Positions 17,294 to 18,637 of a stretch of 38,619 nt of DNA are shown one piece after another. The number at the start of each line of letters is the position of its first letter. Within the stretch, counting starts at the first letter, position 1. The notes beneath the pieces were generated by a model, which worked only from the letters and a program-made list of their open reading frames with translations, had not been told where the DNA came from and did no database searches. The stretch spans positions 1 to 38,619 of the forward strand of contig JAQVEM010000002.1 of the NCBI GenBank assembly GCA_028697935.1. The letters run 5' to 3'. A program made the position numbers and the translations under genes. This stretch comes from Actinomycetota bacterium (GTDB lineage Bacteria > Actinomycetota > Humimicrobiia > Humimicrobiales > Humimicrobiaceae).

Positions 17294-18637
17294 ATGGTTA
17301 AAGAAAATAATAAACTAAAATATGATGTGATAGTAATTGGTTCAGGTCATGCAGGCTGTGAAGCAGCACTGGCGGCCGCAAGAGGTGGCGCTAAAACTCT
17401 TCTTGTTTCAATCAATCTGGATACTGTTGTGTTAACACCTTACGGGAATGAGATGGGAGGAGCAGGGCGAGATCTGTTAATAAAGGAAATAGACATTATG
17501 GGAGGAGAAATACTTAAAAACATTAAAAATAATTATATTAGTATTAGACTAGATAATAAGTGGACTGATTATCAAGTAAAAACCACCAAAGTTCTTGTTG
17601 ATAGAAGAAGATATTTACTTTTTATGAAGAAAGTTATTGAAAATCAGGAAAATCTGGACCTCAGGCAGGGCTTGATAGTAGAAATATTTAGAAATGGGGA
17701 TTTATATAATTTAAAAACAAGTGATGGGATCACATACTCAGCTTACTCGGTCATTGTATGTACTGGAACTTTTCTTGGTGGAAAAATATTTTGGGGAGGG
17801 TATGAATTAGAAGCTGGCAGACAGGGAGAAATATGTTCCAGGAGGCTTCTTGAGAGTTTAAAAAGTTATGGATTTAAGTTTAAAAGAGTAAGAAATTATG
17901 TTGCCCCGCTGGCAGACAGTAAAACAATAAAAAGGGAAAATTTTGATAAATTGCTATTCAAAGGAGAAAATAATGATTTTTTATTCGGGGATGAATTGAA
18001 AGTTAAAAGACAAATGTATAGTTATAAAACATACATAAATAAAAATTTTGTTGATTACTTATTAAAAAATAAGAATAAAATAGAATTTTCAGATAAATTC
18101 AGCAATAAAAATGATGCTGATTTTAACTCTATTGAATCAGTGATATTAAGAAATAAATACAAAGAAAAGATCGAAGTTTTCATAAATCCTACTGGTAGGG
18201 ATACAACCGAAGTATATCTAAAGGGCCTTGAAACAGCCCTTCATGAAAAATTACAGACCATGATGTTAAAAAAATTGATTGGTTTTGGGAGTGCAGAGAT
18301 TACCAGGCCGGGTTATGGTATTGAATACAATATCCTGAGCCCACACCAATTAAAAAGTGATTTACAGGCTAAAAATATGGAAGGGATCTATTTTGCTGGA
18401 CTTATAAATGGAACAGCAGGCTACGAAGAATCTGCTGCTCAGGGAATGGTTGCTGGTATGAATGCCGCAAGAAGGTGCAAAGGACTTAGAAGTATTTGCA
18501 TTAAGAAAGAAGATAGCTGTACAGGAATGCTCATAGACCATATTATATCCGGAGACAGTAATAGCAGGAGTTTATATCGAATAAACCCGGGCCTGGAGGA
18601 ATATATGTCCTACAGAAGAAAAATATCCAATGTATAG
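17294..18637 (+). CDS. MnmG(GidA)-like FAD-binding paralogue lacking both conserved cysteines and the C-terminal MnmE-binding domain
   Basis: 447 aa. [30 protein letters not shown] and [19 protein letters not shown] match the adjacent mnmG. PCNPSIGG is replaced by PYGNEMGG and HCPSID by DFNSIE. It ends shortly after LIDHIIS. Confidence 0.75.
   Translation: [447 protein letters not shown]

Follow-up and report, generated by a model that had tools for sequence, protein, structure and literature searches.

The stretch analysed here (the window: 38,619 nucleotides, positions 1 to 38,619 of contig JAQVEM010000002.1 in assembly GCA_028697935.1, from an uncultured Actinomycetota bacterium of the family Humimicrobiaceae) encodes, between mnmE and a canonical mnmG, a 447-amino-acid paralogue of the transfer RNA (tRNA)-modifying protein MnmG (GidA). 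Phylogeny and gene order show that this short paralogue is the upstream gene, since degenerated, of a tandem mnmG pair that arose by duplication within its own lineage, a deep-branching group of low-GC (guanine plus cytosine) Actinomycetota. The gene is under purifying selection, its product has lost both conserved MnmG cysteines and most of the C-terminal helical domain, and it probably serves either as a partner without catalysis of its own or as a flavoprotein put to a new use.

Open reading frame calling confirms the intact 447-amino-acid frame (17294-18637) of the original prediction, and profile searches delimit what the protein has kept. Pfam GIDA (PF01134) is matched with 316.7 bits against a cutoff of 22.1 (E 3e-94), residues 11-397 covering positions 1-389 of a 391-position profile, and neither GIDA_C_1st nor SAM_GIDA_C has a Pfam match in the 447-amino-acid protein. 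The MnmG equivalog model TIGR00136 gives 337.4 bits against a cutoff of 524.85, with only positions 1-417 of 616 matched. The short paralogue is a member of Pfam GIDA and lies outside the MnmG equivalog family, since four defining features of MnmG, looked for here, are missing. BLASTP aligns it with the neighbouring MnmG at 37% identity over 414 amino acids (E = 1e-93, 2 gaps).

The motif pairs quoted in the original prediction align exactly, MPCNPSIGG opposite TPYGNEMGG and GPRHCPSID opposite NDADFNSIE, both in the pairwise alignment and in one of 120 sequences to which E. coli MnmG was added for residue numbering. Both conserved cysteines are thereby replaced (C47 by Y50, C277 by F277), and a cysteine shifted to a nearby position, looked for in these alignments, was not found. 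Across 50 members of the short clade the C47 column holds Phe in 35, Tyr in 12, Asn, Leu and His in one each and Cys in none, whereas it is Cys in 33/33 full-length paralogues and 40/40 canonical MnmG proteins; the adjoining N48 has become Gly in 45/50. At the C277 column a Cys is kept in six of the 50, the window protein not among them, and the MnmG-specific motif 1 (E. coli 273-287, GPRHCPSIDRK) is replaced in the window protein. In E. coli, the C47A and C277A variants bind FAD (flavin adenine dinucleotide) that is reduced by NADH (reduced nicotinamide adenine dinucleotide), yet make no 5-carboxymethylaminomethyluridine (cmnm5U), and C47A alone abolishes its formation (PMC10723064).

The flavin-binding part has fared differently. 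GxGxxG, TGTFL, AGRxGE, TRPGYxxEY and NGTxGYEExxxQG are all retained in the short clade, and 45 alignment columns are invariant over 51 members. An AlphaFold2 model has a predicted local distance difference test score (pLDDT) of 84.7 and a predicted template-modelling score of 0.89, with low confidence confined to the former motif 1 region and to two loops, at C47 and at 176-179. Its template-modelling (TM) score is 0.88 both to Aquifex aeolicus GidA (2zxi) and to MnmG chain C of the E. coli MnmEG complex (9hip). Going by the model, the short protein would have the fold of the first two thirds of MnmG, counted from the N-terminus, and, going by the motifs, it would bind FAD. The MnmE-docking helical domain is missing, as originally proposed. 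The frame, however, ends 31 rather than about 25 residues past LIDH, equivalent to about E. coli residue 445, and a stub of two helices remains of the roughly 230-amino-acid domain. Judged by these losses, the short protein should be unable to make cmnm5U34 itself, and neither the helical domain nor motif 1 should be available to it for docking MnmE.

Selection on the gene was measured as dN/dS (nonsynonymous over synonymous substitution rates; Nei-Gojobori) in two pairs, with relatives of 79% and 89% amino-acid identity. Over the whole short gene the ratio is 0.18-0.20, not near 1, which bears out the earlier argument that the uninterrupted frame is selected; it compares with 0.08 for mnmG, 0.13-0.18 for mnmE, 0.20 for rsmG and 0.17-0.24 for jag. 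Within the short gene it falls to 0.07-0.13 in the FAD-domain segments and stands at 0.62 in the former motif 1 region and 0.23 in the C-terminal stub; the Rossmann-type FAD-binding core equals canonical MnmG in the strength of its purifying selection. Column conservation follows the same division: the FAD segments reach 0.70-0.77, on a par with canonical MnmG, insertion domain 1 has 0.58, the motif 1 region 0.34, where canonical MnmG has 0.75, and the beginning of the helical domain 0.29. The insertion domains are the most diverged parts; the original prediction had already called the insertion domain diverged.

Canonical MnmG has 145 positions (E. coli 1-440) with a conservation of 95% or more, and these give further resolution: the full-length paralogues keep 118/145 and the short clade 65/145 (45%). 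The losses of the short clade cluster at E. coli residues 47-49, 56 and 75-98, at 196-204, at 267-298 and at 405-440. By cryo-EM (cryogenic electron microscopy), MnmE contacts MnmG at 53-55, 82-92, 290-296, motif 1 (273-287) and 427-437, with further contacts at 516-517, 548-555 and 608-622, and this surface overlaps the proposed tRNA-binding surface (PMC12397908). The lost clusters coincide with the MnmE contact patches, and the contacts at 516-622 are absent from the short protein altogether. Gains are few: four residues only (G51, L140, A204 and E313) are both specific to the short clade and at least 90% conserved there, accompanied by semi-conserved new cysteines at 150, 156 (C156 in 86%) and 181 (C181 in 74%).

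The origin of the gene is indicated by its relatives. The nearest full-length proteins are not the neighbouring MnmG; they are paralogues of 587-631 amino acids with 43-47% identity (for example, P0040, P0075 and P0035), which keep both cysteines in MPCNSAIGGPG and SPKYCPSIEDK. Because such full-length paralogues hold the same slot in three related lineages, between mnmE and a second, canonical mnmG, the ancestral state is a tandem pair of full-length mnmG genes. The gene that the original prediction took as inserted is therefore better described as a tandem duplicate, a full-length, cysteine-bearing second MnmG being ancestral in the slot. Tandem full-length pairs behind one mnmE are seen in the related Actinomycetota metagenome-assembled genomes L093 (7001-8806), L095 (7001-8779) and L096 (1458-3341); the upstream copy there has both cysteines, and its GIDA_C_1st domain is no longer recognised by Pfam.

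Phylogenetic analysis agrees with this origin. Unrooted neighbour-joining trees on corrected p-distances (411 columns, 123 sequences, 200 bootstraps) recovered the short clade as monophyletic (200/200), grouped short and full-length paralogues together (200/200) and nested the short forms inside the full-length paralogue clade (199/200). Nine canonical neighbours formed their own group (200/200), and short paralogues, full-length paralogues and the canonical MnmG of the lineage came together in 198/200. Moreover, short and full-length paralogues have in common nine derived residues that canonical MnmG does not have (V102, L109, L127, S143, D144, W167, Q177, I180 and F196). Horizontal insertion of a foreign gene was rejected, given the uniform GC content of the region (0.32-0.34, paralogue included) and the position of the paralogue clade as sister to the lineage's own MnmG. 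The full-length upstream paralogue is the direct evolutionary parent form of the short clade: the two have the same slot, flanking parS sites (see below), shared derived residues and 43-47% identity. They differ in that the full-length form keeps both cysteines, SPKYCPSIEDK, the EPYR, TSR and DNAD motifs, the SAM_GIDA_C bundle and a terminal VSRET.

An apparent intermediate between full-length and cysteine-less forms is P0130 (L101 6001-7380), a protein of 459 amino acids in the same slot in which C47 is still present, while C277 and the greater part of the helical domain are gone. Its DNADIRM is fused to the terminal NVSRET, and it branches at the base of the short clade in 97/100 bootstraps. 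The series from full-length through C47-keeping short and cysteine-less to ultra-short forms shows the order of losses.

The C-terminus preserves a further trace of the duplication. The two spacers that flank the paralogue have in common the palindrome TGTTTCACGTGAAAC(A/G), and two sites in the window match, with 0 and 1 mismatch, the 16-bp sequence TGTTNCACGTGAAACA, which we take to be the parS consensus of the Firmicute/Actinobacteria type, versus 0.00 matches expected by chance. With parA and parB 2.7 kb downstream, the flanking palindromes are predicted parS sites, origin-proximal and near parB. Both flank the paralogue in 9/10 related loci, L096 having the downstream one only; the pair of palindromes was recorded in L001, L002, L005, L007, L009, L011, L093, L095, L098 and L101. 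In the full-length paralogues the downstream parS lies within the last codons and encodes the C-terminal ...NVSRET, and the VSRET end is still present in the short forms P0010-12, P0016, P0017 and P0022; in P0015 and P0069 another frame of parS gives MFHVKH. Because parS flanks the paralogue and encodes VSRET, the duplicated unit was probably the parS upstream of mnmG together with mnmG, and the short forms would have arisen through internal deletion or erosion of the helical domain, not through one premature stop. Lengths by sub-lineage are 484, 480, 473, 454, 450, 447, 440, 430, 425, 417 and 406 amino acids, and, as read from these sequences, erosion of the C-terminus has gone further in some lineages than in others. 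The catalytic stripping of the original prediction accordingly stands as far as the loss of the cysteines and helical domain is concerned, and gives way to a progressive, lineage-specific process in place of one clean event. Duplication of a parS site with a gene whose C-terminus it encodes is an unusual overlap of centromere site and coding sequence.

Sequence depth around the palindromes calls for a separate remark. In three landfill metagenomes, unitig depth rises 3-30-fold at 17196-17269 and 18676-18749, and apparent joints between 17267 and 18713 raised a candidate deletion allele. This was rejected, the joints being unitig-graph junctions at the repeated parS with unrelated inserts; the depth spikes and joints arise because the same 16-mer recurs in many genomes of the community.

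Short, cysteine-less copies are not confined to one branch, since at least two further sequence groups have them in the same slot. Ultra-short forms of 326-363 amino acids and the divergent pair P0148 and P0198 join the short clade in 95/100 bootstraps. In the ultra-short P0144, P0243 and P0251 the motif 1 part of insertion domain 2 is deleted, leaving mainly the FAD domain, and some ultra-short relatives have an altered GxGxxG context, such as GGGFTGSEAA. A second group (P0161, P0187 and P0261; 89/100) adjoins the full-length, cysteine-bearing P0131 in the tree, and P0136 groups beside another full-length protein, P0135; all cysteine-less short forms as one clade were recovered in 0/100 bootstraps. 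P0161 (L104 6001-7374, GC 45%) and P0136 (L103 5799-7199, GC 32%) are likewise encoded between mnmE and a canonical mnmG, and in L103 this canonical MnmG shares 63-67% identity with Clostridia-type MnmG. The closest match of P0161 is its own neighbour (47%), that of P0136 a Firmicute-type MnmG (44%). No parS palindrome was found in L103, and L104 has one, upstream of mnmE. Because P0136 and P0161 do not group with the clade of the window protein, these data suggest that an upstream duplicate of mnmG has been stripped of its cysteines and helical domain more than once.

The family itself is small. A search of 5.8 billion proteins, clustered at 90% identity, returned about 50 clusters of GIDA-only proteins of 373-484 amino acids with 42-79% identity to the query. 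When 1.84 billion representatives were searched with a profile, about five clusters at 50% identity scored 546-695 bits, the next match being a full-length protein at 437 bits. NCBI labels the members only 'FAD-dependent oxidoreductase [Actinomycetota bacterium]', one of them being named Candidatus Hydromicrobium sp. of the class Ca. Humimicrobiia. Only the generic GIDA family of Pfam/NCBIfam covers them, and literature searches on Humimicrobiia and on paralogues and look-alikes of MnmG turned up no account of a truncated or additional MnmG; a place in an already characterised family, which would have counted against the original prediction, was thus not found. Every contig examined (at least 10 loci) has the short gene in the same slot, in the order dnaA, HATPase_c, rpmH, rnpA, (yidD), yidC, jag, mnmE, short gene, mnmG, rsmG, parA, parB, always beside a fully canonical mnmG and a single mnmE with an FCIGK end. 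The window protein shows the marks that define the short clade, namely the slot, the missing C47, the truncated helical domain and the 200/200 monophyly. In L001 (7479-9349) the canonical mnmG is split by a frameshift near codon 505 into frames of 505 and 104 amino acids. Sequencing error is the more likely cause than a true pseudogene, because the contig naming suggests a long-read assembly.

The features of the window that bear on the paralogue are collected in Table 1. The window spans a chromosomal origin region, in which dnaA and dnaN are present and the sign of the GC skew switches near 10-12.5 kb. The minus strand encodes dnaN, dnaA and the HATPase_c gene, and the plus strand, in order, rnpA, yidD, yidC, jag, mnmE, the paralogue, mnmG, rsmG, parA, parB, a radical-SAM gene and a VIT1 gene. 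The paralogue is not an assembly artefact, because its frame is covered by unitigs of three independent landfill metagenome runs and 10 or more independent contigs carry orthologues with an identical architecture. A strong hairpin with a 17-bp stem followed by a T-run (15703-15740, plus strand) lies directly 3' of jag and 5' of mnmE and is the sole terminator-like site in the block; because it precedes mnmE, the genes mnmE, short paralogue, mnmG and rsmG may form a transcription unit of their own. A promoter scan stayed at chance level (54 sites versus 50.8 expected), and an Rfam scan of the window gave no match. Elsewhere, the HATPase_c gene (281 amino acids, 11844-12689, minus strand) adjoins dnaA on the rpmH-rnpA side and keeps that position in all related loci, L104 included, and a glycoside hydrolase family 3 gene (640 amino acids, 1733-3655, minus strand), not far from the origin region, has a local GC content of 0.42-0.43 against about 0.33.

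Table 1. Coordinates of the short paralogue, its motifs and the adjoining features in the window
Feature	Position	Strand	Basis and remarks
mnmE, 460 amino acids, C-terminal FCIGK motif	15823..17205	+	Pfam TrmE_N, MnmE_helical, MMR_HSR1; translation
parS-like palindrome TGTTTCACGTGAAACG, mnmE-paralogue spacer	17253..17268		sequence match
Short MnmG paralogue, open reading frame	17294..18637	+	ATG start; 447 codons, uninterrupted; 447 amino acids
GSGHAG (GxGxxG) dinucleotide-binding motif, residues 16-21	17339..17356	+	G16, G18 and G21 invariant in 51 members
Y50 codon, position of E. coli C47	17441..17443	+	never C in the short clade
F277 codon, position of E. coli C277, degenerate motif 1 region	18122..18124	+	alignment; pLDDT <60
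C-terminal stub, residues 398-447 and stop	18485..18637	+	AlphaFold2 helices 409-419 and 434-446
parS-like palindrome TGTTTCACGTGAAACA, paralogue-mnmG spacer	18715..18730		sequence match
Canonical mnmG, 627 amino acids	18778..20661	+	TIGR00136 834 bits vs cutoff 525; Pfam GIDA, GIDA_C_1st, SAM_GIDA_C; both cysteines
rsmG (gidB), overlaps the mnmG stop, same direction	20651..21391	+	Pfam GidB 2.5e-47

Among possible functions, we favour, with a probability of roughly 0.4, that the short protein is a non-catalytic, FAD-binding subunit that pairs with the neighbouring full-length MnmG. It would associate with the MnmG encoded next to it through the ordinary MnmG dimer contact, giving a hard-wired asymmetric dimer in which the canonical subunit alone engages MnmE and carries out the chemistry, while its short counterpart would add stability or make up some of the tRNA- or flavin-binding surface. 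Such a partner is preferred over an enzyme with a new substrate because the losses are joined by almost no new conserved residues; the regions that might form a new pocket are the least constrained parts of the protein, and the ultra-short relatives, which keep mainly the FAD domain, point the same way. The pattern looks like a retained ancestral subset (the fold, the flavin site and probably dimerisation) more than a new active site. Within the alpha2beta2 MnmEG complex of E. coli, FAD density is missing from one of the MnmG subunits, whose motif 1 and C-terminal arm are disordered, and only one tRNA is bound per MnmG dimer (PMC12397908). The proposed asymmetric dimer would mirror this arrangement, which offers a precedent by analogy.

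Several points weigh against such a partner role. The FAD site is putative, assigned by motif conservation only (GxGxxG and NGTxGYEExxxQG), and E. coli MnmG with both C47A and C277A keeps its FAD poorly (PMC10723064). The short gene is also the fastest-evolving of the cluster, with 48-60% identity between distant genomes versus 72-82% for MnmG. Its conserved synteny may be merely historical, the whole oriC gene block being frozen in the lineage, and a search for RNA-seq (RNA sequencing) runs found none. Finally, Phe or Tyr at 47, Gly at 48, C181 and C156 could mark a remodelled active site.

This last point leads to the main rival, possible though somewhat unlikely, in which the short protein is a stand-alone flavoenzyme acting on a new, non-tRNA or MnmE-independent substrate. 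The pocket by the isoalloxazine would have been rebuilt as MP[F/Y]G for a different redox or methylene-transfer reaction, such as plain NAD(P)H:flavin oxidoreduction. It would account well for FAD segments as conserved as those of canonical MnmG (dN/dS 0.07-0.13), for a non-random, constrained C47 column (aromatic in 47/50, followed by Gly in 45/50) and for the semi-conserved cysteines 150, 156 and 181. Flavin-dependent methylene transfer without an enzyme nucleophile is known from ThyX. Furthermore, the E. coli cysteine mutants still reduce FAD with NADH (PMC10723064). It fits less well with there being only four clade-specific residues at 90% or more, with insertion domains that would form the substrate pocket and are the least conserved parts (0.34-0.58), and with length and C-terminus varying freely among lineages. 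Motif 1, once proposed as the NADH site (PMC12397908), is moreover almost neutral at 0.62.

A stricter form of the partner role, which we hold doubtful, would make the short protein the obligate 'silent half' of a heterodimeric MnmG, duplication having split two roles between which the subunits of the homodimer would otherwise alternate. One subunit would engage MnmE and FAD and the other would stay idle or hold the tRNA, a division that would let one gene shed its cysteines, motif 1 and MnmE-docking arm. The same solution would then have evolved repeatedly, in clade A, in the P0161 group and in P0136.

That the short protein is a negative regulator is improbable. Truncated paralogues act as dominant negatives in other dimeric enzymes, and one that titrates MnmG monomers, tRNA or FAD would lower MnmEG output. 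The losses would be those expected of a partner subunit, the gene apparently runs in the direction of mnmE and mnmG, the stretch from one to the other being free of terminator-like sites, and truncated copies of this kind have turned up again and again in that slot. Constitutive co-transcription with the target would nevertheless be odd for regulation, and no regulatory signal was found except the parS sites.

We consider it quite improbable that the short protein still modifies tRNA U34 or another RNA, using another nucleophile or acid-base residue and another one-carbon route. The MnmG fold is kept, R176 (E. coli R174) and TRPGYxxEY are conserved, six of the 50 members have a Cys at the C277 column, and the covalent-nucleophile role of the MnmG cysteines is itself doubtful (PMC10723064). 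Yet C47, whose replacement alone abolishes cmnm5U, is present in no member, the MnmE-contact surfaces and most conserved arginines (196, 204, 275, 427, 432, 436 and 440) are lost or deleted, and a fully canonical MnmG is encoded next door.

Slow pseudogene decay, or a DNA spacer holding two parS sites about 1.4 kb apart, would suit the fastest-evolving gene of the cluster, its stepwise, independent C-terminal erosion and the parS at both ends in 9/10 related loci, and is largely refuted and very improbable, as dN/dS of about 0.2 matches rsmG and jag, frames are intact in at least 50 diverged clusters, and 45 invariant columns with constraint that follows the FAD fold would not be preserved by a spacer.

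Compared with known systems, the short protein resembles MnmG/GidA (E. coli b3741; PDB 3CES and 9HIP; A. aeolicus 2ZXI) in its PF01134 match, its FAD domain with two insertion domains (TM 0.88), the motifs GxGxxG, TGTFL, TRPGYxxEY and NGTxGYEExxxQG, and the adjacency to mnmE. It differs in the absence of C47, C277/motif 1, GIDA_C_1st and SAM_GIDA_C, and in scoring 337 versus 525 bits. By length it comes near TrmFO, the folate/FAD tRNA m5U54 (5-methyluridine-54) methyltransferase; the large GidA of about 600 amino acids is MnmG and the small one (GidA-S) of about 450 is TrmFO (PMC1635325). The two have a similar length and superfamily, and both are without the MnmG C-terminal helical domain. 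TrmFO is, however, a separate lineage; the short form derives from a long MnmG, and only residues 308-436 align. A TrmFO identity was rejected at 78.3 bits against 262 for NF003739, 64.3 against 428.65 for TIGR00137 and a TM score of 0.49 to 3g5q against 0.88 to GidA, which upholds the earlier assignment as MnmG-like. Thermus thermophilus 2CUL (GidA-related, 232 amino acids), the sole further structure of a truncated GidA-like FAD-domain protein, is distant and of another size and architecture, with an alignment of 85 residues only (E = 2.4e-11) and a query-normalised TM score of 0.42. RNA-modifying heterodimers with a catalytically dead paralogue include ADAT2/ADAT3 (as against homodimeric TadA), Trm61/Trm6 and METTL3/METTL14. 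The likeness lies in the proposed path, in which a homodimer duplicates and one copy loses catalysis and stays on as partner; it is an analogy in the proposed mode of action, not in family.

The interest of the short paralogue lies in the machine to which its parent belongs. MnmEG is a universally conserved tRNA wobble-modifying machine whose human counterpart, GTPBP3/MTO1, is a disease locus, and a 2025 cryo-EM study leaves open whether MnmE is bound by one MnmG subunit and tRNA by the other. A selected flavin-domain MnmG paralogue beside a normal MnmG is a natural probe of this subunit asymmetry, and a clear case of pseudo-enzyme evolution. If the protein were a stand-alone flavoenzyme, it would represent a new activity in the GidA superfamily. 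If it forms a heterodimer with MnmG, it would bear directly on the division of labour in the MnmEG complex, and natural heterodimers with an obligate silent subunit would show a half-of-sites mechanism of MnmEG.

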